DNA of 64,000 nt from an uncultured Gammaproteobacteria bacterium (GTDB taxonomy: Bacteria; Patescibacteriota; Patescibacteriia; Magasanikbacterales; GWA2-37-8). Below are positions 5,044 through 64,000 of the stretch, piece after piece. Both the position numbers and the translations under genes were made by a program. The notes beneath the pieces were generated by a model. That model was not told where the DNA came from. It made no database searches and saw only the letters and a list, made by a program, of their open reading frames with translations. Location: positions 439,400-503,399 of the forward strand of contig CAYHBZ010000001.1 in assembly GCA_964355175.1 (NCBI GenBank). Direction: 5' to 3'. Numbering within the stretch: the stretch's first letter is position 1; the number at the start of each line of letters is the position of its first letter.

Positions 5044-6234
5044 TTATTTATTGATTTTTGTTACTACACCAGCGCCGACGGTACGACCACCTTCGCGGAT
5101 AGTGAATTTCATTTTGTCTTCCATAGCTACTGGAGTGATCAATTTGATTTTCAAATTGACGGTATCACCAGGCATAACCATTTCTACACCAGCTGGCAAT
5201 TCAAGTACATCACCAGTTACATCGGTAGTACGGATATAGAACTGTGGTTTATAGCCTTTGAAGAATGGCTTATGACGACCACCTTCTTCTTTGGACAAAA
5301 TATAAACTTCTGCATCAAATTCAGTATGAGGAGTGATAGAACCGATTTTGGCCAAAACCATACCGCGTTCTACTTCTTCTTTTTTGGTGCCGCGCAACAA
5401 GATACCAGCGTTATCACCGGCCTGACCTTCTTTCAAAGATTTGTTAAACATTTCAATACCAGTAACGATAGTCTTCATTGGTTCTTCACGTAGACCAACG
5501 ATAGCAATTTCATCACCGATTTTGATCATACCACTTTCAATACGGCCAGTTACTACTGTACCACGACCTTCGATGGAGAATACATCTTCAACAGGCATCA
5601 AGAATGGTTTGTCAGTAGCGCGCTGTGGCTCTGGGATATATTCATCCAAAGTCTTGATCAAGTCCATTACTGGCTTGGAAGCAACTTCGTCGGTTGGGCT
5701 TTCCAAAGCTTTCAAAGCGGAACCGCGGATAATAGGAGTGGTGTCGCCAGGGAAACCATATTTGTTCAAAAGATCGCGAACTTCAACTTCTACCAATTCA
5801 ACCAAATCTGGATCGGCCATGTCGATCTTGTTCAAAAATACTACGATGTAAGGCACACCTACCTGACGAGCAAGCAAGATATGTTCACGAGTCTGAGGCA
5901 TCGGACCATCAGCGGCAGATACTACCAAAATAGCACCATCCATCTGAGCAGCACCGGTGATCATATTTTTCACATAGTCAGCGTGACCTGGACAGTCAAC
6001 GTGAGCATAGTGACGTTTTTCGGATTCGTATTCAACGTGAGCGGTAGAAATGGTAATACCACGAGCTTTTGACTCAGGAGCTTTATCCAAATCGCCTACG
6101 CCCTTATTCTGGGCAATACCGCCATGAGCGGCCAACACCTGCAAAATAGCAGCTGTCAAAGTTGTCTTACCGTGGTCAACGTGACCAATTGTACCTACGT
6201 TCAAATGGGGCTTGGTTCTTGAAAACTCAGCCAT
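5044..6234 (-). CDS. tuf: Elongation factor Tu
   Basis: 396 aa. [22 protein letters not shown] motifs. Confidence 0.97.
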
Positions 6235-10922: not shown

Positions 10923-11486
10923 TTAGAACGACTGGATGTAGTTGGTGAAAATCGCTTGCGCGATTCGACTGATCTGACCCTCTTGCGAGACGATCTCATA
11001 GTCGTAATCACCGACATACCCCAAAGCCCAGAAACGCTCCAGCTCCTTTTGCGCGCTAGCGAAACGCGCACCGTCGGCATCCCGACCGTCTTTTCCCAAA
11101 CGCTGACGAAGCACGTCGAGCGAAGGCGGAGAAACGTAGATCGAGAACAGTTGACCAGGGAATGCCTGCTTCATGATCGACAGTCGATCGATCGGCCAGT
11201 CCAGCACCGGGAATTTCTCGGCGGACAGAGCCGCTTCAATCGGCAACCTCGGCGTCCCGTAAAGGATTCCGCCGAAGAGTTCGTTGACCACGAGCAGTTC
11301 GCCACGTTGCGACATTGCATCCATCTGGCTACGGCTCACCGAAACCTTATTCCTCTCTCCTTCCCGAAGCGGACGAGTCATGTAGGGACAGATGTAGACG
11401 AAGCGGTCGTCGAGTTTCGACAACTCGTCGATGACAGCACTCTTGCCCACGCCCGACGGACCCAGCAACAGCATGAACCTGCTCAT
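10923..11486 (-). CDS. Guanylate kinase-like NMP kinase, GC-rich
   Basis: P-loop LLLGPSGVGKS, Gmk-like TRPLREGE, and PPSLDVLRQRL / DYDYEIV segments. The start ATG overlaps the upstream stop (TGATG). AGGAGG lies 6 nt upstream. Confidence 0.6.
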   Translation of the reverse strand: MSRFMLLLGPSGVGKSAVIDELSKLDDRFVYICPYMTRPLREGERNKVSVSRSQMDAMSQRGELLVVNELFGGILYGTPRLPIEAALSAEKFPVLDWPIDRLSIMKQAFPGQLFSIYVSPPSLDVLRQRLGKDGRDADGARFASAQKELERFWALGYVGDYDYEIVSQEGQISRIAQAIFTNYIQSF

Positions 11487-12322
11487 CACTTCCTCCTTTC
11501 CAGGTTGAGAGCTTCTTTCGTCGTGACCGTAGCCATTTGAACGGCTGTTTGCCACGACTCAGAAGCGCCTGGATAGAGCAGGCCGCGAGAAGAGTTCACG
11601 AAGACGCCGAGACCTTCCGAGTTGAGCAGTTTGCCCAGATCCTGGTAGCTTCCACCTTGAGCACCGACACCGGCGAGCAGGATCGGCATGTTGTTCGGGA
11701 TGAGCGGGCGGATATTGTTCATATCCAACCCTGCCGTCGAGGACAACACGGGGATCATGTTACCGTTGCGATTCCAACGATTCACCACCAGGTCCAGCAT
11801 GTACTGCCAGAGCATGCGACCGTCATGGAGACGGACATCCTGAACAACACCGCCGGAGATGTTGCTCGTCTTGACGAGTACAACGACAGACTTGTCTTTG
11901 AGCTCCATGAGCGGTTCGATGACATCGTCCCCCATGTAGGGGTTCACGACGACACCGTCCGCCTGGATCTCTCCAAACAGGTTGTCGATGTAGGCCGCCA
12001 TAGTGTTCTCGATATCGCCGATCTTGCAATCGACAATCACGGGAACTCCCGGCAAAGTGCGATGGACGTAGTGGACGATCTCCTTGAGTACATCATGTCC
12101 ACCGGACATGAGATCGAAGAACGCCTTCTGCGCCTTGAACGCACAGACATGTGGACCAGTAGCATCCACGGCTCCCTGCAGAAACGCCAGAACCTTTTCT
12201 TCCTTGCTCCCGGGCTGTTCCAGCACTGCGCGCGGCAGTTTGGAAAAATCCGGATCAAGGCCGGCGCACAATAGAGTGCCCTGCTCGCGCATACGCGCGA
12301 AGAGTTGCTGATTCGCAATCAT
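11486..12322 (-). CDS. Orotidine-5'-phosphate decarboxylase-like (type 2 ODCase family), GC-rich second copy
   Basis: AGLDPD and VIVDCKIGDIENT preserve the DxKxxD catalytic motif. Paralogous to native pyrF at 41352-42170. AGGAGG SD. Confidence 0.65.
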   Translation of the reverse strand: MIANQQLFARMREQGTLLCAGLDPDFSKLPRAVLEQPGSKEEKVLAFLQGAVDATGPHVCAFKAQKAFFDLMSGGHDVLKEIVHYVHRTLPGVPVIVDCKIGDIENTMAAYIDNLFGEIQADGVVVNPYMGDDVIEPLMELKDKSVVVLVKTSNISGGVVQDVRLHDGRMLWQYMLDLVVNRWNRNGNMIPVLSSTAGLDMNNIRPLIPNNMPILLAGVGAQGGSYQDLGKLLNSEGLGVFVNSSRGLLYPGASESWQTAVQMATVTTKEALNLERRK

Positions 12323-13132
12323 TTACCCCTCCTGGATGTGAAGGCCTTGATGGTTGAGGTGTTGGCCCTTGGCGGCCAAATGGCGAGCGGTATGCTCGGT
12401 GGCCGGCACGATCACCGGCACGAGCTGGTCGCTAACCTTGTAGCCGTTTTCGCCAAAGACTGTAGCCTTGTAGGGGTTGTTGGTCGCCAGATCAATAGCA
12501 CACGAAGACGGCACCTCGAAGAATTTGAGGATGCAGACGACGCCGGAGTAGGTCCGGACATCGATGACGCCACCAGGTGCCAAGAGGCTGGCCGACTCGA
12601 CCGTGTTCACCTTGAGCTGTTCTTGAAGCCAGAGGGTAGCGAGCTTGAAGGTCAAGCCCATCCCCCGGCCATCTTGACGCGGGATGTTCACGATCATACC
12701 TTCCCCGACCTCGGCGAGCGTCTGCATAGCCAGCTTGAGTTGCTGACAGCATTCGCACGTCCGATCGCCGAAGACCTGGCCGGTTTCGCATCCCGAATCG
12801 GTACGCAAAACCAACCGTTCCTTCCGCTTGAAGACGGGGTTGAGGGTATTGAGGTCGATCTCGCCCCGAAGCAGCACGGAGTATTTCTCCCACTGGTCGT
12901 CGATGGCGAAATTGTACTGCCAAAACGACCCGAACTCGGTGTTGAGAACGCCGAGACCACGACGCTCCACGAAGTAGAAACGCCTGTCTCCAGCCTCCAC
13001 GACATCGATGCGCTTCTGCACCGGCTGCATAGAGCTCTGGACGAGAGCGATGAACTTCTCAACTTCCTGAGGGGACATGCCCGACTTGGCAATGATCTTG
13101 ATCATGTCGGGCGGGGGAACGCTGATAGCCAT
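12323..13132 (-). CDS. GTP cyclohydrolase II-like protein, GC-rich, with a non-canonical residue at the ring-opening Tyr position
   Basis: LRTDSGCETGQVFGDRTCECCQQL matches RVHSECLTGD..CDCGxQL (zinc Cys). NIPRQDGRGMGL matches YHRQEGRNIGL with Tyr replaced by Ile/Pro. LATNNPYK matches LLTNNPKK. AGGAGG SD. Confidence 0.65.
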   Translation of the reverse strand: MAISVPPPDMIKIIAKSGMSPQEVEKFIALVQSSMQPVQKRIDVVEAGDRRFYFVERRGLGVLNTEFGSFWQYNFAIDDQWEKYSVLLRGEIDLNTLNPVFKRKERLVLRTDSGCETGQVFGDRTCECCQQLKLAMQTLAEVGEGMIVNIPRQDGRGMGLTFKLATLWLQEQLKVNTVESASLLAPGGVIDVRTYSGVVCILKFFEVPSSCAIDLATNNPYKATVFGENGYKVSDQLVPVIVPATEHTARHLAAKGQHLNHQGLHIQEG

Positions 13133-13156
13133 GGCTATCCTCCTGATGCTTGATGG

Positions 13157-13522
13157 TTACAGATTGGTCGGCGGGTACATCCCGTCGCTCTTCTTCTTGC
13201 CGAAGGAGCCGGGCACCATACGGAAAGCCAGACGATTTTCCGGTTCGTACACCATGGGGGTGGCGATGAGCACATTGCACTGAGGGCAGAGCAGGTTGGG
13301 CAGCGCCTTCTTGTCGAGGGCCTTGCCCTTCAACTCGGCCAAAGTCGGCGGAGCGAAGATGCGATCGACATACATGCGCAAGAGCGCGCCAGGGCCGTCC
13401 TTTTGGTAAAGGGCGACATGGGCGTGGCAAGCGCAGCAGACGATGTTGAGGAAGCGAGAATCGCCTCCACGAGCCCGCGAGTAGCTGTCCCGCTTGGCCT
13501 GAAACTTGATTGGTTCGGTCAT
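13157..13522 (-). CDS. Zn-ribbon protein, GC-rich paralog, first gene of the operon
   Basis: 121 aa. RGGDSRFLNIVCCACHAHVALYQKDGPGALLRMYVDRI...CPQC. 24 nt upstream of the GCHII-like gene. Confidence 0.5.
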   Translation of the reverse strand: MTEPIKFQAKRDSYSRARGGDSRFLNIVCCACHAHVALYQKDGPGALLRMYVDRIFAPPTLAELKGKALDKKALPNLLCPQCNVLIATPMVYEPENRLAFRMVPGSFGKKKSDGMYPPTNL

Positions 13523-35437: not shown

Positions 35438-35466
35438 TTGCTAAAAAGAAAAGAAAGTGATAATAT
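35438..35466 (+). promoter_or_regulatory. gatB promoter
   Basis: TTGCTA-17-TAATAT. The ATG at 35481 is about 8 nt after the predicted transcription start. Confidence 0.45.
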
Positions 35467-35480
35467 TGTCTAATAACAAT

Positions 35481-37031
35481 ATGCCTAAATATCTCCCTAT
35501 TATCGGTCTGGAAGTCCATGTAGAGCTCAAGACGAAGAGTAAAATGTTTTGTGCTTGCCCTAATTCTCCAGATTATGCCGCACCCAATACCAACATTTGT
35601 GAAATCTGCTTGGCTCATCCCGGGACTTTACCTTTACCCAACAAAGTGGCTATTGAAGCTACGGTAAAAATCGCCAAAGCTATCGGGTGCAGAGTAAATG
35701 AATTCTCCAAATTTGACCGTAAACATTATTTTTATCCGGACTTACCAAAAGCCTACCAGATCTCTCAGTATGACCTGCCTATTGGTGAGCACGGTGGCAT
35801 AAAACTAGAATTTTTACCTGGCAAAAATCACCGCGATACCGCTAAAGTCGGTATTACCCGTATCCATTTAGAAGAAGACACCGCCAAGCTCACTCACGGC
35901 AACGACGGCTCTACTTTGGTAGATTTCAACCGCGCCGGAGTACCGCTGGCTGAAATCGTATCCGACCCGGATGTGCAGAGCGCCTTGGAAGCCAAAACCT
36001 ACTGCCAAGAATTACAGACAATTTTGCGCTATTTGGAAGTGAGCGACGCCGACATGGAGCGCGGCCATATGCGCTGTGAAGTGAATATCTCTATCCAAGA
36101 AGAAGGTAAATTTGAAATCGTGGATGGCGTGATCAAACCAATCGGTAATTATCAACTAAATAATAAAATAGAAGTAAAAAATATCAATTCTTTTCGCGCG
36201 GTAGAAAAAGCGATTGACTACGAAACTATTCGCCAGACTGAAATGATCAAAAAAGGTGAAACCTGGGGACCAGAAACTCGTGGTTGGAACGACGAAAAAA
36301 GCCAAACCGTATTACAGCGCGTAAAAGAATCCGCCGCTGACTATCGTTATTTCCCCGAGCCAGATATTCCTCCTTTTCATCCTCTCAAAATTGCTTTGAG
36401 TACCAGCATGCCTGAATTACCTAGCGCCCGCCGTAGCCGTTTTCACAGTGAATATGGCTTTTCTTGGGCTGACGCTCAAATTCTGACTGCCGACAAAGAC
36501 TGGGCCAATTTTACCGAAGAAGTTTATAGCGAATTATTAAATTGGATAAATGATTTAAAGAATTCAAATTTAAAAAATACTCAAAACACGGTTGGCTCTT
36601 CTACCCAGCTGGCTAAACTAGCCGGCGGCTATCTAACCACCAAATTAGCCGGTGCCATGTCCGAAAGAAAAATTGATATTAAAATCCTAAAAATCAAACC
36701 AGAAAATTTTGCTGAATTAATCGCTTTGGTTTTCACCGATCGCCTCAATTCCACCAACGCCCAAAAGGTACTCGCTGATATGCTCGACAGCAATACGGAT
36801 ATTGACCCTACTCATATCATGGAAGAAAAAGGATATGGCCAGATTGCCGACGAAGGCCAACTCAGCGCAATAGTGGACGAAGTAATAAAAAATAATCCAG
36901 TCCAAGTAGAACAATTTAAAGCCGGCAAAGAGCCGCTAATGCAGTTCCTCAAAGGCATGGTAATGAAGGCCACCGAAGGCAGTGCCGATCCGGCGGTAGC
37001 GGAAAAATTACTCCGAGAAAAGCTCAAATAA
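35481..37031 (+). CDS. gatB: Asp/Glu-tRNA amidotransferase subunit B
   Basis: LPIIGLEVHVELKTKSKMFCAC N-terminus. C-terminal GatB/YqeY domain. Confidence 0.9.
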   Translation: MPKYLPIIGLEVHVELKTKSKMFCACPNSPDYAAPNTNICEICLAHPGTLPLPNKVAIEATVKIAKAIGCRVNEFSKFDRKHYFYPDLPKAYQISQYDLPIGEHGGIKLEFLPGKNHRDTAKVGITRIHLEEDTAKLTHGNDGSTLVDFNRAGVPLAEIVSDPDVQSALEAKTYCQELQTILRYLEVSDADMERGHMRCEVNISIQEEGKFEIVDGVIKPIGNYQLNNKIEVKNINSFRAVEKAIDYETIRQTEMIKKGETWGPETRGWNDEKSQTVLQRVKESAADYRYFPEPDIPPFHPLKIALSTSMPELPSARRSRFHSEYGFSWADAQILTADKDWANFTEEVYSELLNWINDLKNSNLKNTQNTVGSSTQLAKLAGGYLTTKLAGAMSERKIDIKILKIKPENFAELIALVFTDRLNSTNAQKVLADMLDSNTDIDPTHIMEEKGYGQIADEGQLSAIVDEVIKNNPVQVEQFKAGKEPLMQFLKGMVMKATEGSADPAVAEKLLREKLK

Positions 37032-37048
37032 TTATGCACAGCCGTCAG

Positions 37049-37077
37049 TTGTCAACCACTAGAAAGAATGTTAATAT
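37049..37077 (+). promoter_or_regulatory. pyr operon promoter
   Basis: TTGTCA-17-TAATAT. Confidence 0.45.
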
Positions 37078-37087
37078 GAGTGGAAAT

Positions 37088-37123
37088 ATGATCAAATTTT
37101 TTACCAAAATTTATTTTCATTAA
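37088..37123 (+). CDS. Putative pyr leader peptide of 11 aa
   Basis: MIKFFTKIYFH is encoded in a U-rich tract. Its stop codon lies 6 nt before the attenuator hairpin. Confidence 0.3.
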   Translation: MIKFFTKIYFH

Positions 37124-37128
37124 TAATC

Positions 37129-37157
37129 GGCCACCCGTAATTGGGTGGCTTTTTTTA
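37129..37157 (+). terminator. pyrBI attenuator (intrinsic terminator in the leader)
   Basis: GGCCACCC-gtaatt-GGGTGGC followed by TTTTTTT, about 15 nt before the pyrB ATG. Confidence 0.55.
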
Positions 37158-37171
37158 AACAATTTAAACCT

Positions 37172-38107
37172 ATGGCCACGAACCTCACAGGCAGAGACAT
37201 CATCTCGATAAAAGAAATAGGCAAAAACGAAATCTTGGCGGTTTTAAAAAATGCCAAACAATTAAAAAAGAACCCCCAACCACAACTCCTAAAAAATAAA
37301 GTAATGGCCAGTTGTTTTTTTGAGCCTTCTACTCGCACCCGCCTTTCCTTTGAGAGTGCCATGCAACATTTGGGCGGCTCCGTAATAGGATTTGCCGATC
37401 CGGGCGTCACCTCCACTAAAAAAGGTGAGACTTTGTACGACTCTATAAAAATCATCGGACAATACGCCGATGTCGTAGCTATGCGTCACCCAATGGAAGG
37501 TGCCGCCCGCCGCGCTTCCGATGCTACCGACAAACCAATCTTGAACGGCGGCGACGGTGCCAACCAACATCCAACCCAAACTCTGCTGGATTTATTTACT
37601 ATCCAAGAATGTCAAAAAAAATTAGAGGGGTTGGATATCGCCCTAGTCGGTGATCTAAAATATGGCCGTACTACTCACTCCCTAGCTCAAGCATTGATAC
37701 ATTTTGGCGCGCACTTATATTTTGTGGCGCCCGATTCATTACAAATGCCGGAATATATTTGTGAAGAATTAAAAGAAAATAAAGTGAAATTCTCCCTGCA
37801 TTCCAAAATTGAAGAAGTAATAAACAAAGTAGACATACTATATATGACACGCATTCAAGGCGAACGTTTTGCCGATCCAATGGAATATGAAAAAATAAAA
37901 AATGTCTTTGTGCTCAATGCTAAAATGCTAGAAAAATCTCGTTCTAATATGCGGGTCTTACACCCTCTACCAAGAGTAAACGAAATTACCACTGACGTAG
38001 ACAAAACCAAACATGCCTACTATTTTGAACAAGCGGAGAATGGCTTATATGTGCGCCAGGCCCTTTTAGCGATGGTGCTCGGCAAATTAACTAATACCCT
38101 TAGATAA
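37172..38107 (+). CDS. pyrB: Aspartate carbamoyltransferase catalytic subunit
   Basis: [13 protein letters not shown] and HPLPRVNEI motifs. Start placed at MATNL after the attenuator. The track start of 37145 lies inside the hairpin. Confidence 0.85.
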
Positions 38108-38113
38108 TTTTGT

Positions 38114-38590
38114 ATGAAAAATAAAGAACAAATTCGCGCTTTCAGAGTATTTGCCATCAAAGAAGGTACTGTCATTGATCATATCCCGGCCAAACAAGCT
38201 TTAAAAATTATTCAATTTTTAAAACTATATAACAACGAAAAAATAGTTACTGCTGGCTTTAATTTTCCAAGTAAAACCCTAAAATTAAAAGATATTATCA
38301 AAATAGAAGGACGAGAATTGACAGAAGAGGAGGCCAACCAGGTGGCAATTTTGGCACCTACCGCTACCATCAATATTATTAAAAACTTTGACCTGGTGAA
38401 AAAATTCCCCGTAATGATACCCGCTCAAGTGGAAAAAATAGTTATCTGTCCAAACCCAAAATGCATTACCAATAACGAAAATATGGAAACGATTTTTTAT
38501 ACCAAAGCTCGCGGAGCCAAGGTAGACCTACAGTGTCGTTACTGCGAAAAAACTTTTTCTCAAGATGACATCAAGCAATACCGAGTTTAA
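38114..38590 (+). CDS. pyrI: Aspartate carbamoyltransferase regulatory subunit
   Basis: C-terminal zinc domain CPNPKCITN...CRYCE. Confidence 0.85.
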   Translation: MKNKEQIRAFRVFAIKEGTVIDHIPAKQALKIIQFLKLYNNEKIVTAGFNFPSKTLKLKDIIKIEGRELTEEEANQVAILAPTATINIIKNFDLVKKFPVMIPAQVEKIVICPNPKCITNNENMETIFYTKARGAKVDLQCRYCEKTFSQDDIKQYRV

Positions 38591-38599
38591 TTTCCTGAC

Positions 38600-39787
38600 A
38601 TGAAAATAAAAACTTATAACAATTTAGAAATTGAATTGGATTTGCCTCCCAACTCGGACACTACCAATCTAATAGCTTTACCTGCCCTGATTGATACCCA
38701 CGTGCATTTTCGCACGCCTGGCGCGGAATACAAAGAAAATTGGGAAAGTGGTGCCAAAGCGGCCATTGCCGGCGGCGTGACCAGCGTACTGGATATGCCC
38801 AATAATACTCCGTCTATTACTACCGAGGCAATTTTGGATGAAAAAATAAAAATAGTAGAAGCACAATTAAAAAAGGTTGGCATTCCCCTGCATCCTTATT
38901 TTTATCTTGGCGCCACCTTGGATAATTTGGAAGAAATAGAAAAATGTAAAAATAAAATAATCGGAGTAAAAATATTTATGGGCGCCAGTACCGGTAATTT
39001 ATTGGTATCAGATTACGAAACGCAAAGAAATATTTTTAAAAAATGTGCCGAGCTAAATATAGTAGTGGCTGTACATGCTGAGGATGACGATATCATCAAC
39101 GCTCAAAAAAATAAATTTCCTAGCGCCACCGTAAACGACCACGGAAAAATTCGCCCCAATATTGCGGCCCTGACTGCCGTAAAAAAAGCGATAAATTTGG
39201 CACGCGAAACTGGCGCTATTTTGTATATTCTCCATAGTAGCACTACTGAGGAAATAGCGCTGATTCGCCAAGCCAAAAAAGAAGGACTCCGGGTATTTGC
39301 CGAGGTCACTCCTCACCACCTATTTCTCACTGAGGAGGCCTATGGCACACTTGGCGCCAAAGCGCAGATGAACCCGCCTTTACGCTCCAAAGATGACCAC
39401 AAAGCCCTCTGGGAGGCCATAAAAGACGGCACCGTGGACACCGTAGGTACCGATCATGCTCCCCATACTTTACAGGAAAAAACCTTACCTTATCCACAGT
39501 CACCATCAGGTGTGCCGGGCATTGAAACCTACTTACCACTATTGCTTGACGCCTATAATGCGGGTAAAATTACTTTGGAGAAAATTGTGGAATTAACCCA
39601 TACTAATCCCCAAAAAATCTTTGATATAAAAGAAACCGGTGACCTGGTTTTGGTGGATTTAAACCAAGTGAAAAAAATAAAAAATGAAGATCTAAAAACT
39701 AAATGTGGTTGGAGTCCTTTTGCCGGCAAGGAATTAAAAGGTACGCCAAAATTTACAATTTTAAATAATATAATTTATAAAATTTAA
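38600..39787 (+). CDS. pyrC: Dihydroorotase
   Basis: LIDTHVHFRTPG metal-binding motif. Amidohydrolase fold. Confidence 0.8.
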   Translation: MKIKTYNNLEIELDLPPNSDTTNLIALPALIDTHVHFRTPGAEYKENWESGAKAAIAGGVTSVLDMPNNTPSITTEAILDEKIKIVEAQLKKVGIPLHPYFYLGATLDNLEEIEKCKNKIIGVKIFMGASTGNLLVSDYETQRNIFKKCAELNIVVAVHAEDDDIINAQKNKFPSATVNDHGKIRPNIAALTAVKKAINLARETGAILYILHSSTTEEIALIRQAKKEGLRVFAEVTPHHLFLTEEAYGTLGAKAQMNPPLRSKDDHKALWEAIKDGTVDTVGTDHAPHTLQEKTLPYPQSPSGVPGIETYLPLLLDAYNAGKITLEKIVELTHTNPQKIFDIKETGDLVLVDLNQVKKIKNEDLKTKCGWSPFAGKELKGTPKFTILNNIIYKI

Positions 39788-39790
39788 TCT

Positions 39791-40738
39791 ATGCGTCATC
39801 TCATCTCACTCAAGGAGCAAAGCAAGGAAGATATTTTGAAAATGCTCGATATGGCAATCAAATTAAAAGCTAAACGCCAAGCCAGAGAGTTGACAAATAT
39901 TTTACCAAACCAGACATTGGTAATGCTATTTCAAAAAACTTCTACTCGCACTCGCCTATCATTTGAAGCCGGCATGACAGAGCTTGGCGGTCATGGTATA
40001 TTTTTGGACAGCCGCACCTCACAGCTTTCACTCACTGATTTTGGCGATGAAATTCAAGCTATCATGCGCTTTGGACAAGTGCTAATGTTCCGCGCGCTTA
40101 AAGCCGATGATGTAATCAAAGCCGCGTCATATAATCGCGTACCGGTAATCGATGCTTGTAGCGAAAAATATCATCCAGCTCAAGCCCTGAGTGATTTGCT
40201 CACTATGGCCGAAAAATCAAACGGCATTGAAAATGTAAAAAAAATAACTTGGCTTGGTGTAGAAAATAATGTATCCAACACTCTCATGCTCGCCTGCGCC
40301 AAACTTGGTATCCAAATAGCCATCTGCGCTCCGGAAGCCAACACCCAGAGTATTGATCCGGAATTAAACGCCGTGGCCGAAGCTACCGGCATGGTGACAC
40401 GCACTACCAACCTACAGGAAGCTCTCAAAGACACCAACTATGTACATACCGACACTTGGATGGATATGGAATTTTTTGAAAATGGCCAAGTGAAACCTAG
40501 TTTCCAGGCGGAATATGATCGCCGCAAAACTACGTTTATGCCTTTTCAACTCAACGCCAATTTAATAAATATTTACTCTCCTCAAGCAAAAATAATGCAC
40601 TGTATGCCATGTCACATCGGCTATGAAATTACTCGCGACGCTATTGATCATCCAAATTCCGTAATTTATGATCAGGCCGAAAATCGTATGCATATGCAAA
40701 AGGCGATGATTCTTTGGTTACTGAACAAAGAAGTTTAA
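39791..40738 (+). CDS. Ornithine carbamoyltransferase-like enzyme with non-canonical substrate loop
   Basis: STRTRLSFE carbamoyl-phosphate site. HCMPCH matches OTC HCLP. The OTC DxxxSMG loop is replaced by TDTWMDMEF. Confidence 0.55.
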   Translation: MRHLISLKEQSKEDILKMLDMAIKLKAKRQARELTNILPNQTLVMLFQKTSTRTRLSFEAGMTELGGHGIFLDSRTSQLSLTDFGDEIQAIMRFGQVLMFRALKADDVIKAASYNRVPVIDACSEKYHPAQALSDLLTMAEKSNGIENVKKITWLGVENNVSNTLMLACAKLGIQIAICAPEANTQSIDPELNAVAEATGMVTRTTNLQEALKDTNYVHTDTWMDMEFFENGQVKPSFQAEYDRRKTTFMPFQLNANLINIYSPQAKIMHCMPCHIGYEITRDAIDHPNSVIYDQAENRMHMQKAMILWLLNKEV

Positions 40739-40750
40739 AAAAATAAATTT

Positions 40751-41350
40751 ATGATCAGAGAAGAATTGGTAAATAAACTATTTGAAATCAACGCTGTAAA
40801 ATTTGGCGAGTTCAAACTCAAAAGCGGTATCATGTCGCCAGTATATATCGACCTACGCGTAATTGTTTCCTATCCGGAAGTACTCAAAGCGGTCGGCGAA
40901 GCCATGTGGGAAAAAGTAAAAAATCTAAAATTTGATCTACTCTGTGGCGTACCATATACGGCTCTGCCAATCGCCACGGCTATCTCTCTAAAGCATAATA
41001 TTCCGATGATTATGCGCCGTAAGGAAGTAAAAGATTATGGCACTAGAAAAGCCATTGAAGGCGCTTTCACTGCCGGTCAGCAAGTATTGGTGGTGGAAGA
41101 TTTAGTCACCAGCGGCAGCAGTGTTTTTGAAACCATCGAGCCACTTGAACTCGAAGGATTAAAAATCAACGATGTCATAGTAATGCTTGATCGCGAGCAA
41201 GGCGGCAAAAAACATATCTCTGAAAAAGGAAAGAATTTGCACTCGGTAATTACTATGAGCGAGCTGGTAGATACTCTAGAAAAAAATAATAAATTGGACA
41301 CGCAAACCGTACAAAAAGTGAAAGAATTTATCCAAAACAATCAGGTCTAA
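40751..41350 (+). CDS. pyrE: Orotate phosphoribosyltransferase
   Basis: PRPP-binding VLVVEDLVTSGSS. Confidence 0.85.
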   Translation: MIREELVNKLFEINAVKFGEFKLKSGIMSPVYIDLRVIVSYPEVLKAVGEAMWEKVKNLKFDLLCGVPYTALPIATAISLKHNIPMIMRRKEVKDYGTRKAIEGAFTAGQQVLVVEDLVTSGSSVFETIEPLELEGLKINDVIVMLDREQGGKKHISEKGKNLHSVITMSELVDTLEKNNKLDTQTVQKVKEFIQNNQV

Positions 41351-41351
41351 T

Positions 41352-42170
41352 ATGATAATGGAAAAAGTAAAAAATATTATCGCCAAAAATAATTCGCTGG
41401 TCTGTGTGGGATTAGATACGGAAATTTCCAAAATTCCCGCTCATTTAAAAAATGTAGAATTTCCTCAATTTGAATTCAACAAAGCCATTATTGACGCCAT
41501 TGCCGATTTAGTATGCGCCTTTAAACCCAACACTGCCTTTTACGAAGCTCAAGGCGAGCAAGGAATACACGAACTAAAAATGACCTGCAATTATTTGAAA
41601 GAAAAATATCCAGCAGTACTTTTAATCCTCGATGCCAAACGCGCCGACATTGGGAATACCAACAACGGCTATGTAAAATTTGCTTTTGATTATTTGCAGG
41701 CCGACATGATTACTCTTCACCCCTACTTGGGACAAGAAGCACTCGCGCCATTTCTAGACCGCGCCGATAAAGGCAGTGCCATTCTGTGTCGCACTTCCAA
41801 TATTGGCGCCGGAGAATTTCAAGATCTGAGAATAAACAACAAGAGTCTATTTGAAATAGTAGCCGAAAAAGTGGTAAAACTTTGGAATACAAATAATAAT
41901 TGTTTATTGGTAATAGGAGCCACTTATCCTGAAGAAATGGAACTGATCAGATCCAAAACCGACACTATGTTTTTCTTGGTTCCAGGCATTGGCGCTCAAG
42001 GCGGCGATCTGGAAAAAACTTTATTATCCGGATTAAATTCAGAAAAAAGTGGTTTGATAATTAGTTCTTCCCGTGGCATAATTTTTGCCGACAACACCGA
42101 AAATTTTGCCATCAAAGCGCGCGAGGAAGCGCTGAAATTAAAGGATGAAATTAATAAATACAGAATCTAA
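41352..42170 (+). CDS. pyrF: Orotidine-5'-phosphate decarboxylase, type 2
   Basis: VGLD and LILDAKRADIGNT motifs. Last gene of the pyr operon. Confidence 0.85.
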   Translation: MIMEKVKNIIAKNNSLVCVGLDTEISKIPAHLKNVEFPQFEFNKAIIDAIADLVCAFKPNTAFYEAQGEQGIHELKMTCNYLKEKYPAVLLILDAKRADIGNTNNGYVKFAFDYLQADMITLHPYLGQEALAPFLDRADKGSAILCRTSNIGAGEFQDLRINNKSLFEIVAEKVVKLWNTNNNCLLVIGATYPEEMELIRSKTDTMFFLVPGIGAQGGDLEKTLLSGLNSEKSGLIISSSRGIIFADNTENFAIKAREEALKLKDEINKYRI

Positions 42171-42182
42171 AAAAAATAAAAA

Positions 42183-42212
42183 AACTCCCGACACGCGAGA
42201 GTTTTTTTATTT
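42183..42212. terminator. Terminator between pyrF and ruvA
   Basis: AAACTC-ccgacacgcga-GAGTTT flanked by A and T runs. Confidence 0.4.
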
Positions 42213-61742: not shown

Positions 61743-62696
61743 TTACTTTAAAACTTCTTTTAATTTCTTTCCTAATTTTATTGAGCACAATCCTCCACCA
61801 TCACGCTCATAATCAAAACTTATTACCTTATAATCTTTCAATTCTTTGGTATTGTCTAGTAACAAACCCCATTTTTTTTCTTTATATCTTTTATTTTCTG
61901 CCGCAGTTAACTTATGATTATTATACAACACTGTATCAATCTTGCGTGGCAAATACCGCTGAAGCTCCCTCACCGCGCCGGCCACATCTTCCGGACCAGT
62001 TTCACTATCGGTGCGATAAGCATTACCCGTAACAAAAATTATTTTAGCTTTGTTATTTTTTATAGCAACTTGTATGCCTACTGGCAATAAAGTTGCCACC
62101 ACGCTGGTATAGAGACTGCCGGGACTAAGAATAATATAATCCGCTGATTTGATAACTTTCAAGGATTCACTATAGGCCGAAACTTCCGGCTCTAAAAATA
62201 CTTTTTTTATTCTCAAACTACGATCGTACTCAGGACTATCAATTTTTGCTTCACTAAAAACTTTTTGTCCATTGCTCAGCTCTGCTACTAAATCACTACT
62301 ATGTAGGGTAGCTGGAAATACCTTACCTTGCACTTCCACACTCTGTCCAAGGGCTCGCACCGCCGACATCAATTCTCCGCTATATCGCGTAGCCAGGGTA
62401 AAAAATATATTACCTAGATTATGTTTATCTAGCTTATCCTTACTTTCAAAACGATTGGAATAAAAAATTTTCTTCAGCAATGGATAATCATATTTGGATA
62501 AGGCTAAAACCGCGCGCATAATATCTCCGGGTGGTAAGACTCCCAATTCTTTTCGTAGTCGGCCGGAAGATCCACCGGAATCGCTCATCGCCACAATACC
62601 GACAATATCAAATTTATCGACATTTTGTTTCAATGCCACCAGTGATACCGCACTACCATTTCCCCCTCCCAAAACTACAACTTTCTTTTTATTCAT
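61743..62696 (-). CDS. YvcK/CofD-family protein (gluconeogenesis factor-like, UPF0052)
   Basis: VVLGGGNGSAVSLVAL...AMSDSGGSSGRLR...GDIMRAVLAL pattern. Confidence 0.7.
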   Translation of the reverse strand: MNKKKVVVLGGGNGSAVSLVALKQNVDKFDIVGIVAMSDSGGSSGRLRKELGVLPPGDIMRAVLALSKYDYPLLKKIFYSNRFESKDKLDKHNLGNIFFTLATRYSGELMSAVRALGQSVEVQGKVFPATLHSSDLVAELSNGQKVFSEAKIDSPEYDRSLRIKKVFLEPEVSAYSESLKVIKSADYIILSPGSLYTSVVATLLPVGIQVAIKNNKAKIIFVTGNAYRTDSETGPEDVAGAVRELQRYLPRKIDTVLYNNHKLTAAENKRYKEKKWGLLLDNTKELKDYKVISFDYERDGGGLCSIKLGKKLKEVLK

Positions 62697-62697
62697 A

Positions 62698-63348
62698 TTA
62701 AAATAAAAATTTATTTATTCTCTCATCCCCGAAAGAATCAATTTGTAGATCAGCCAATGAATAATCGCCGCGTGTCCACTGTTGGTTCACCAAAGCAATA
62801 CAGCTCATACCGGCTTTCTTGGCCGACACCACACCATTTTGAGCATCTTCAAATACCAAACAATCTTCCGGACTAACACCGAGCGTTTTGGCGGCATGCA
62901 AATAAATAAATGGATCGGGCTTACCAATATGACCCACATCGTCGCTGGATATTAATTGTTTAAAATAGTTTCTCCAATTAAATTTATCCACCACTTCATT
63001 TATTAATTCATGGCGTGCACCCGACGCAATTGCCTGTGGATAGATCACACTAATTTTGGATAATAAATTTTCTACCAGCGGCAGTGGTTTGATACTGTCC
63101 TTATAAATTTTATCCGTAAAACTTCGTCTTTCTATTATCAACTCTTCCACTGTTCCCGGCAAATTAAATTTTTCTTTTAACCAAGAAACATTTTGAATTT
63201 CACTCCTGCCCGTAAATAATATGGTCATTTCTGGAGTGGTCGCCATATTATATTTTTTTAAAAATCCTTCTTCAGCAGCGCCCCAATATTGCTCACTGTC
63301 AATGAGCACTCCATCCATATCAAAAATTACCGCTTTGAATCTTTTCAT
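62698..63348 (-). CDS. HAD-superfamily hydrolase (subfamily IA, beta-phosphoglucomutase-like)
   Basis: Motif I FDMDGVLIDSE. C-terminal VFEDAQNGV. Confidence 0.75.
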   Translation of the reverse strand: MKRFKAVIFDMDGVLIDSEQYWGAAEEGFLKKYNMATTPEMTILFTGRSEIQNVSWLKEKFNLPGTVEELIIERRSFTDKIYKDSIKPLPLVENLLSKISVIYPQAIASGARHELINEVVDKFNWRNYFKQLISSDDVGHIGKPDPFIYLHAAKTLGVSPEDCLVFEDAQNGVVSAKKAGMSCIALVNQQWTRGDYSLADLQIDSFGDERINKFLF

Positions 63349-63350
63349 AA

Positions 63351-64000
63351 TCATTCTACTGTTACACTCTTGGCCAAATTTCTTGGTCTATCCACATCTT
63401 TGCCGAGCAACACTGCGGTGTGGTACGAAAAAAGTTGCAGAGCCAAAGTATTCACGAGCGGCTCGAGTAGCTCCATAGTTTGTGGTACATATATCACATC
63501 GTCAGCTATTTCCTTGGCTTCCACATCACCCTCAGTGGCAATCAAAATTACCGGTGCTTTGCGAGCCTTGGCTTCTTGGATATTGCTAATCATTTTTTCG
63601 TATAGTTGATTTTTGGTAGCAATCGCGATGATTGGAAAATTGTCCGCCAAAAGCGCGATTGGACCATGCTTCATCTCACCGCCCGGATAACCTTCGGCAT
63701 GAATATAGGAAATCTCTTTGAGCTTGAGAGCGCCTTCCAAAGCCACCGGATAATTTATACCGCGTCCCAAAAAGATACAATCCGTATAATCTTTATATTT
63801 TTGTGCGATCGCTTTTATCTTATTACTTTGGGCCAAAACCAATTTCATCTTTTCCGGAATCTCCAAAAGTGCGTGTAATAATCTTTCACCAGTGGCCACA
63901 CTCACACGATTCAGGCGACCAAACTGCAAAGCATATAAAATTAAAACCGCCACCATATTCGTATAAGCTTTGGTAGAGGCGACCGCCAACTCTGGTCCAG
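63351..64000 (-). CDS. glmS: Glutamine--fructose-6-phosphate aminotransferase, C-terminal SIS part; N-terminus lies beyond the window
   Basis: Ends with the canonical PRNLAKSVTVE. SIS-domain GYPGGEMKHGP. Confidence 0.85.
   Translation of the reverse strand, partial: GPELAVASTKAYTNMVAVLILYALQFGRLNRVSVATGERLLHALLEIPEKMKLVLAQSNKIKAIAQKYKDYTDCIFLGRGINYPVALEGALKLKEISYIHAEGYPGGEMKHGPIALLADNFPIIAIATKNQLYEKMISNIQEAKARKAPVILIATEGDVEAKEIADDVIYVPQTMELLEPLVNTLALQLFSYHTAVLLGKDVDRPRNLAKSVTVE

Follow-up and report, generated by a model that had tools for sequence, protein, structure and literature searches.

How pyrB comes to be expressed from directly behind an intrinsic terminator is the question raised by the locus studied here. 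The DNA analyzed (the window, 64,000 nucleotides) belongs to a genome of Candidatus Magasanikbacteria (Patescibacteria, candidate phyla radiation, CPR), and among GTDB genomes and JGI metagenomes the nearest pyrB loci are labelled as Magasanikbacteria, with protein identities of 64-90%. CPR bacteria are uncultured and have tiny genomes with few recognisable regulators. To our knowledge almost nothing is known of their gene regulation, and our literature search found no paper on attenuators in this radiation. On the plus strand of the window the gene order is tmk, an uncharacterised gene, a terminator, gatB, the putative attenuator region, pyrB, pyrI, pyrC, an ornithine-carbamoyltransferase-like (OTC-like) gene, pyrE and pyrF (Table 1). 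Judged from the sequence and its relatives, the element between gatB and pyrB is probably a ribosome-gated transcription attenuator of the pyrB-pyrI-pyrC-OTC-pyrE-pyrF operon, a reading to which we give a probability of roughly 0.6.

Table 1. Features of the gatB-pyrB region and its surroundings in window coordinates.
Feature	Position	Strand	Remarks
gatB	35457-37031	+	
DnaA-box-like 9-mer TTATGCACA, right after the gatB stop and 8 nt upstream of the -35 hexamer	37032..37040	+	one mismatch to TTATCCACA
-35 hexamer TTGTCA	37049..37054	+	TTGnnn with 17-nt spacer in most relatives aligned
Extended -10, TGtTAATAT (TG 37069-70; TAATAT 37072-37077)	37069..37077	+	TGnTAnnnT in most of the 25 lineages
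Predicted start of transcription at A residues, 7-9 nt past the -10	37084..37086	+	predicted from the -10 position
Leader mini-ORF, 11 codons (MIKFFTKIYFH) and TAA	37088..37123	+	ORF of 11-34 codons in all 25 lineages
AAAAUUU motif, candidate pause/loading site, 23 nt before the hairpin	37106..37112	+	
Intrinsic terminator/putative attenuator, stem 37129-37137 / 37142-37150, loop UAAU, U7 37150-56	37129..37156	+	-16.1 kcal/mol
pyrB (aspartate carbamoyltransferase catalytic chain), first gene of the operon under putative regulation	37172..38107	+	TIGR00670, 2e-113
Remainder of the operon: pyrI, pyrC, ornithine-carbamoyltransferase-like gene, pyrE, pyrF	38114..42170	+	
Operon-end terminator-like hairpin	42177-42209		A/T runs on both sides

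A sequence-only reading of this region had described a TTGTCA-17-TAATAT promoter, an 11-codon ORF, and a hairpin followed by U7 about 15 nt ahead of pyrB, and each of these elements was recovered where it had been placed, with a spacer of 17 nt between -35 and -10 and 15 nt between U7 and the ATG of pyrB. The codons of the mini-ORF are ATG, ATC, AAA, TTT, TTT, ACC, AAA, ATT, TAT, TTT and CAT, and its stop codon (TAA, 37121-23) is followed by a second in-frame TAA (37124-26). The stop lies just ahead of the hairpin as had been claimed, at a distance of 5 nt instead of the 6 nt reported. The start of pyrB was set to ATG 37172 and not to 37145 because the alignments of pyrB homologues begin at residue 1 of the ATG-37172 protein; the GTG at 37145, which had also been discarded in the sequence-only reading, falls within the 3' arm of the hairpin. 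The hairpin at 37129-37150 is the sole terminator downstream of gatB and also ends the gatB transcript, a dual use that had been overlooked.

Taken on its own, the window contains a single element standing out from chance, namely the terminator, whose stem comprises nine pairs including two G-U pairs. The promoter has an ordinary score of 9/12 matches (31 such sites in 8 kb vs 20 expected), and the mini-ORF is insignificant, as 17% of leader shuffles gave an ORF of 11 or more codons that ends at the hairpin (P=0.17). The significance of the mini-ORF derives instead from the conservation of the layout in relatives. Regions upstream of pyrB were extracted from 58 Magasanikbacteria-type loci (individual loci are given as L numbers), and the succession of promoter, mini-ORF, terminator and pyrB was found in 25 distinct Magasanikbacteria lineages. 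The promoter consensus of the relatives is TTGnnn-17-TGnTAnnnT, and a GC-rich hairpin with a U-run precedes pyrB across the 25 lineages; its stem shows compensatory changes at 5 of 7 pairs (16 lineages). The stop codon is located between 10 nt before the hairpin and 18 nt inside it, most often 5 nt before. Combination of the shuffle tests by Fisher's method gave P = 5e-16 for the leader ORF across the 25 lineages, a value that overstates their independence because the lineages are related. The end of the hairpin is separated from pyrB by 8-49 nt in most lineages and by 95-176 nt in a minority with inserted repeats. That promoter, short ORF and intrinsic terminator form a unit, as had been proposed, thus finds backing in their joint conservation in about 25 lineages and in their tie to the pyr operon.

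The leader sequences themselves are largely unalignable among the 25 lineages. A comparison of the window with L003 revealed a 3-nt indel that preserves both the reading frame and the 5-nt distance from stop to hairpin. Neither a regulatory codon run nor a conserved peptide is common to the 25 leader peptides, and weak resemblances, MK(K/H)Y.H(K/Q) and K(I/F)Y, are confined to subsets of leaders. In close pairs the substitutions within the leader ORF are mostly nonsynonymous (3/3 between the window and L001, 4/4 between L003 and L083), and it is therefore the open frame and not the peptide that is under selection. Free divergence of the peptide is what the attenuator model leads one to expect, because only the act of translation would matter. 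The proposal that related genomes should be searched for a conserved leader therefore has a divided outcome: the ORF layout is kept in 25 lineages, the peptide sequence is not conserved. The same substitutions weigh on the idea that the unit of about 70 nt from promoter to terminator is an independent small gene neighbouring pyrB, encoding a small RNA or an 11-residue peptide. The unit is a complete transcription unit and bears a weak, sub-threshold Rfam resemblance to Hfq-type sRNAs. However, these sRNA matches are far under the gathering scores and overlap the terminator, the peptide changes even between close relatives, and the hairpin stays within 8-49 nt of pyrB in most lineages, so that we consider an independent gene very improbable.

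The leaders, about 40 nt in length, are essentially unstructured (-0.037 vs -0.137 kcal/mol/nt in coding controls; Wilcoxon P=4e-7), and their pooled composition is A 42%, U 31%, C 18% and G 8.5%, compared with 19% G in the operon. Folding gave no alternative (antiterminator) structure in the leaders. A weak 5' helix considered as an antiterminator in the window was rejected; it needs bases upstream of the predicted transcription start and is absent in relatives. An Rfam scan of positions 36500-37700 at E<=10 yielded no PyrR element (RF00515) and no riboswitch, but only sub-threshold sRNA and Phe_leader matches overlapping the terminator, the latter with 20.3 bits against a gathering score of 55. 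The claim that no PyrR binding loop is evident was thereby confirmed for this interval. This poverty in G and in structure excludes antiterminator hairpins, aptamers and sites of the PyrR type. Nothing in the leader RNA rivals the terminator, and therefore a trans-acting object is left, most simply the ribosome.

A different trans-acting object would be a protein or small molecule that binds the leader independently of translation, in the manner of PyrR or a riboswitch, with (C)AAAAUU(U) as the binding site. This is suggested by the positional enrichment of an AAUU-containing motif: AATT starts 17-30 nt before the hairpin in 17/28 leaders vs 6.6 +/- 2.1 in shuffles, and AAAATTT occurs in 7 leaders vs 1.06 expected. 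Moreover, GCCGACAATTC is common to L102 and L111 although its reading frame differs between the two, a hint of nucleotide-level conservation. The lack of any Rfam family, including PyrR, at E<=10 apart from terminator-driven noise speaks against such a site, as do the shortness and openness of the leaders and the conservation of ORF and stop register in place of sequence. Binding independent of translation therefore appears unlikely.

The ATG follows the -10 element at a distance of 9-12 nt in most relatives, with a purine at position 7 after the -10. In the window the predicted 5' UTR of the mini-ORF would be about 2-4 nt long, placing the AUG at about +3 to +5; only about 3-4 nt would then separate the predicted 5' end from the AUG, and the mini-ORF would be effectively leaderless. 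Shine-Dalgarno (SD) sequences precede only 3 of 54 window genes. Because the genome is nearly SD-free, their absence before the mini-ORF and before pyrB is normal, and the missing SD was dropped as an objection to the mini-ORF. Furthermore, the leader ORFs begin as the genes of this genome do, with (a/g)atATG followed by AAA, AAT or ATC. Reiterative transcription and start-site switching were rejected as mechanisms, no homopolymer being conserved at the predicted start among relatives.

A second promoter, TTTACC-16-AATAAT (37100-37127), could in principle start transcription within the 5' arm of the hairpin and supply terminator-free, constitutive pyrB transcripts, in which case the upstream unit would not be the main control. 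The promoter scan gives 9/12 matches for this site, and TAA-rich stop regions produce -10-like hexamers in many relatives. Yet the score is at chance level for an AT-rich region and the relatives have no conserved -35 at the right spacing, which makes control by an internal promoter highly unlikely.

The specificity of the layout was examined by scanning 360 kb (both strands of the window and of 49 distinct loci, with 237 terminator candidates) for a promoter, an ORF of 8-40 codons and a terminator. Within these 360 kb, all matches lay ahead of one of three kinds of gene: pyrB, the gene heading a pyr operon (L004 and L005), or guaB. In L004 and L005 the layout precedes an amidinotransferase-like gene, which is the first in an operon with pyrB, pyrI, a carbamate-kinase-family gene and an amidohydrolase-family gene, presumably pyrC. 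The guaB gene (IMP dehydrogenase) is preceded by the layout in L008 and L009, the only two lineages in which guaB was covered. No leader is present at pyrB where this gene directly follows carB (L007, L010, L019, L021, L022, L110, L113). Since the matches are confined to these sites, the element tracks the first gene of nucleotide-biosynthesis operons.

This distribution also bears on the possibility that the hairpin is a mere terminator or insulator of the gatB unit, that promoter and ORF have no role and that pyrB is expressed by leaky read-through. Such a role would agree with its position as the only terminator after gatB and with several other window genes that begin <30 nt after a terminator. 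It would also agree with the arrangement in L002, L082 and L085, in which promoter and mini-ORF are missing and the gatB stop codon lies 6 nt ahead of the same hairpin, followed by pyrB; here a gatB ribosome could act likewise, or the hairpin could be a leaky gatB terminator. In contrast, promoter, ORF and terminator recur irrespective of the upstream gene, and in L004 and L005 they have moved to the gene that heads the operon. Apart from those before guaB, the 360 kb contain no other terminator with the layout, and the P value for ORF conservation is that given above. A hairpin serving gatB alone is accordingly an improbable explanation. None of these alternatives accounts both for the conservation of the ORF register and for the confinement of the layout to nucleotide operons.

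Other sites in the window with a terminator before a gene (15492, 16633, 1461) proved to be a tRNA terminator and ordinary sites lacking the attenuator layout. Ordinary gene-end terminators in this genome are positioned 5-11 nt after stop codons, and several genes start <30 nt further on. The stop-hairpin register of 5 nt is thus also seen at ordinary gene ends and is not unique to the leader. Since gene-end terminators share this register, translation-gated read-through may be general in this organism and reused by the mini-ORF.

A ribosome-gated attenuator would operate as follows. The sigma-70-type extended -10 promoter would give a transcript with the AUG about 3-4 nt from its 5' end. By default the polymerase would get to the hairpin and U7, about 70 nt from the start, ahead of any ribosome, and transcription would end; termination by default is expected from the very short ORF. 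If the polymerase were slow relative to the ribosome, the 11 codons would be translated and the ribosome would come to rest on the stop codon, 5 nt short of the hairpin, where it would occlude or melt the base of the stem. The terminator would then fail and pyrB would be transcribed. With the first 3-4 nt of the stem masked, its calculated stability fell from -16.1 kcal/mol to a range of -9.2 to -5.9 kcal/mol.

Experiments in E. coli provide the physical precedent. A stop codon 5 bp before the terminator tR2 cuts termination from about 90% to <10% in a translation-dependent manner, and full termination needs >27 nt between stop and hairpin (PMC4824070). The 5-nt distance in the window equals that of the repressing construct tested by Li et al. 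2015 (PMC4824070), which demonstrates a general physical effect in a synthetic E. coli reporter and not a natural regulatory element. Terminators in the first 100 nt of an ORF do function, the ribosome having not yet caught up, except where, as in pyrBI, polymerase and ribosome become coupled through pausing (PMC4824070; PMC5021804). The earlier proposal that a ribosome near the stop codon blocks the terminator is strengthened by this agreement in distance, and the logic of the ribosome blocking the terminator can be regarded as well supported by the comparative data. The transcription start, the translation of the mini-ORF and the nature of the signal are inferred.

The signal had been assigned to UTP, sensed by pausing in a U-rich tract. 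The window leader does contain runs of U6, U3 and U4. This feature is shared with few relatives: runs of at least five U were present in 6/25 leaders, the U content given above is 31%, and U-richness is not conserved. Furthermore, the guaB leaders, which share the layout, are not G-rich. The occurrence of the layout at guaB argues for a signal more general than UTP, so that general NTP supply, polymerase speed or translation capacity may be sensed rather than UTP alone. The AAAAUUU motif is a candidate loading pause because the polymerase would be located there as the 5' AUG emerges. Our best guess is that nucleotide supply is read out through polymerase speed, with the AAAAUUU/U-run region acting as the pause site in this leader. 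Overall, the attenuator reading is partly supported: strong comparative evidence speaks for its architecture and logic, and the UTP-specific part is not supported.

A motif that had been overlooked so far, resembling a DnaA box, lies beside the -35 hexamer (Table 1). The 9-mer TTATCCACA is the E. coli DnaA consensus. Exact copies of TTATCCACA or its counterpart TGTGGATAA were found 15 times in 296 kb, where about 2 are expected, and 11 of the 15 belong to this promoter in relatives, where they precede the -35 by 5-10 nt in either orientation. The tuf promoter of the window has an exact box at the equivalent position. In E. coli, DnaA prefers paired boxes, and the genes with DnaA bound upstream include purH, nrdA and polA (PMC11317965). 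No paired boxes are evident at the window promoter. The putative site for DnaA or another factor probably represents a separate, promoter-level control in addition to the proposed attenuator, and DnaA-box-flanked promoters would link replication control with nucleotide supply.

With these elements combined, we tentatively consider that Magasanikbacteria, and perhaps other SD-poor CPR bacteria, may use an undescribed minimal class of attenuator. It would do without any RNA switch and consist of a near-leaderless mini-ORF of 9-34 codons that stops directly at an intrinsic terminator, placed specifically before nucleotide-biosynthesis operons (pyr and guaB) behind DnaA-box-flanked promoters. Nucleotide supply would in this way be coupled to the speed of the polymerase, the availability of ribosomes and the replication initiator. 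If the attenuator reading of the window is right, it would provide a concrete and testable cis-regulatory mechanism for pyrimidine and probably guanine nucleotide synthesis in CPR bacteria, and a working hypothesis for the expression of genes directly behind terminators in compact genomes. Interest would grow if the links to guaB and to the DnaA box hold more widely.

Several known systems invite comparison. In PyrR attenuation (Bacillus and others) and in the reiterative antitermination of pyrG, pyrimidine genes are likewise controlled at a terminator in the 5' leader. In contrast to the former, the present leader has no PyrR binding stem-loop, and in contrast to the latter it has no conserved GGGC-type start or homopolymer at the predicted start. 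The trp, his, leu and phe attenuators share with it a leader peptide, a terminator and a read-out of transcription-translation coupling, but the hairpins of antiterminator and anti-antiterminator and the regulatory codon run are missing here. Short regulatory ORFs on leaderless transcripts are found in mycobacteria, with cysteine-responsive examples. Leaderless transcripts and small proteins have been documented there (PMC4633059), and as in the window a mini-ORF stands at or near the 5' end of a transcript upstream of a biosynthetic operon. Here, however, no regulatory codon runs are present, the terminator follows 5 nt after the stop, and another phylum and nucleotide instead of amino-acid genes are concerned.

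The closest counterpart is the pyrBI attenuator of gammaproteobacteria. In E. coli its leader gene, pyrL, has 44 codons. Nine gammaproteobacterial pyrBI loci (Vibrio, Photobacterium, Endozoicomonas; L024-L052), with PyrB proteins about 60-63% identical to that of the window, were used as comparators. Their leader ORFs are SD-led and 30-36 codons long, with stop codons between -4 and +16 nt relative to the start of the hairpin; U-runs of 4-6 and a conserved RNA hairpin region are also present in these leaders. Both versions have a pyrB-pyrI operon, an intrinsic terminator a few tens of nucleotides before pyrB, and a leader ORF that stops just before or inside the hairpin, and U-runs also occur in the window leader. 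Neither has an antiterminator, and therefore the ribosome itself must block the hairpin. In contrast to the comparators, the ORF of the window is three times shorter, with 11 codons; the Magasanikbacteria version is SD-less, near-leaderless and without pause hairpin, its U-richness is unconserved, and the same design also precedes guaB. A blastn search (word size 7) against the nine gammaproteobacterial leaders returned only matches of the GC-stem/T-run tail (E >= 0.11). The label of an E. coli-type attenuator had to be given up as a statement of membership, as no sequence similarity to the Vibrio, Photobacterium and Endozoicomonas leaders was detected. As far as the sequences tell, the element would work like the pyrBI attenuator and cannot be filed as a pyrL homologue. 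If this reading is true, the pyrBI-like logic of the ribosome as antiterminator extends beyond the Proteobacteria, in a stripped-down, SD-less and near-leaderless form.

A leader of the pyr type, in which a promoter and a short ORF precede an intrinsic terminator hairpin, was also found upstream of guaB (IMP dehydrogenase) in two of the two lineages for which this gene was available. Both guaB leaders consist of an extended -10 element, an ATG located 8 nt downstream, an ORF of 9 or 12 codons and a hairpin. Two further loci, L004 and L005, carry a leader in front of an amidinotransferase-like gene. This gene heads an operon in which pyrB and pyrI are accompanied by one member each of the carbamate-kinase and amidohydrolase families, the latter presumably pyrC. 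The leader spans 33 codons encoding the peptide MKHQSPIPNHDLFKLKSG(A/V)FVSQFIINFITTIR, and its stop codon lies within the terminator. Two of the three differences between the two copies are synonymous.

The promoters of the pyr leaders share an additional element. The DnaA-box consensus TTATCCACA or TGTGGATAA was present 5-10 nt upstream of the -35 region, in both orientations. In 296 kb of sequence from relatives, 11 of the 15 exact consensus copies occupied this position. An exact TTATCCACA was also detected in the promoter region of a 396-aa gene, followed after 5 nt by TTGGCC-17-TGaTATAAT. Judged from its N-terminal sequence alone, this gene would be tuf, encoding EF-Tu. No mini-ORF follows this promoter; its predicted transcript would begin directly with a hairpin of 12 bp and a U-rich tail, a structure which may represent another attenuator or a stabilizing 5′ hairpin. 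Elsewhere in the window, six DnaA-box-like 9-mers with one mismatch each are clustered in approx. 900 bp within or between minus-strand ORFs; this region could serve as an origin or in DnaA titration.

Comparison of the regions upstream of pyrB revealed several variants of the leader. At three loci (L002, L082 and L085), a hairpin of the leader type was present 20-50 nt upstream of pyrB without promoter and without mini-ORF. Here, the gatB stop codon precedes the hairpin by 6 nt, and pyrB follows 18-27 nt behind it. The leader frame of the window and of L001 extends uninterrupted back to an ATG starting 2 nt past the gatB stop codon, giving an ORF of 29 codons; this extended frame is not kept in L003 or L083. 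On read-through transcripts, ribosomes terminating at gatB could reinitiate at the 29-codon ORF and continue translation as far as the terminator. In several lineages, palindromic repeat-like insertions of 50-140 nt part pyrB from the terminator or from the upstream gene carB. L005, L011 and L093, which lack a mini-ORF attenuator at pyrB, display a second conserved pyrB-proximal motif, tattaaatcagtRtaatYaat...ATG, which is not accompanied by a terminator.

Features of the window and of related pyrB loci (L numbers)
Feature	Location	Remarks
guaB leader	L009 1270-1340	
guaB leader	L008 975-1081	
Leader before amidinotransferase-like gene	L005 1600-1740	
Leader before amidinotransferase-like gene	L004 1800-1940	
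DnaA-box-like 9-mer	window 37032-37040	one mismatch to consensus
pyr-leader DnaA-box consensus	L095, L096, L097, L106, L009, L015, L048, L006, L111	~145-255 nt upstream of pyrB
Promoter of 396-aa gene	window 6405-6325	minus strand; gene at 5044-6234
DnaA-box-like cluster	window 62490-63400	
29-codon ORF	window 37034-37123	
Palindromic repeat-like insertions	L048, L088, L097, L013, L010, L110	in the terminator-pyrB or carB-pyrB interval
Second pyrB-proximal motif	L005 2930-3000; L011 and L093	upstream of pyrB
Ornithine-carbamoyltransferase-like gene	window 39791-40738	inside pyr operon
Amidinotransferase-like and carbamate-kinase-family genes	L005 1878-2801 and 4503-5447	
Genes with Shine-Dalgarno-like sequences (in high-G+C block)	window 11486-13522	
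Terminator hairpin pair	window 15492-15467 and 16633-16608	minus strand

The pyr operon of the window includes an ornithine-carbamoyltransferase-like gene, and carAB is absent from the 64 kb. In place of this gene, L005 contains the amidinotransferase-like and carbamate-kinase-family genes. Together, these gene contents suggest that carbamoyl phosphate for pyrimidines derives from arginine or citrulline breakdown in lineages of the window and L005 type. In other lineages, carB is located immediately upstream of pyrB.

Throughout the window, Shine-Dalgarno-like sequences precede 3 of 54 genes, all of them inside a block of unusually high G+C content (0.49-0.52, compared to ~0.40 outside it). 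This block may be of foreign origin. Two near-identical terminator hairpins, (A/G)GACGCCTTcatcaaAAGGCGTCTT, are positioned 1.1 kb apart, one of them directly 3′ of tRNA-Arg.

Several binned contigs labeled 'uncultured Gammaproteobacteria' encode PyrB proteins with 74-82% identity and are evidently Magasanikbacteria-type; among those with a readable upstream gene, gatB precedes pyrB in L003 and L012. The nearest PyrB relatives outside Patescibacteria are gammaproteobacterial (Vibrio, Psychromonadaceae), with 60-64% identity.
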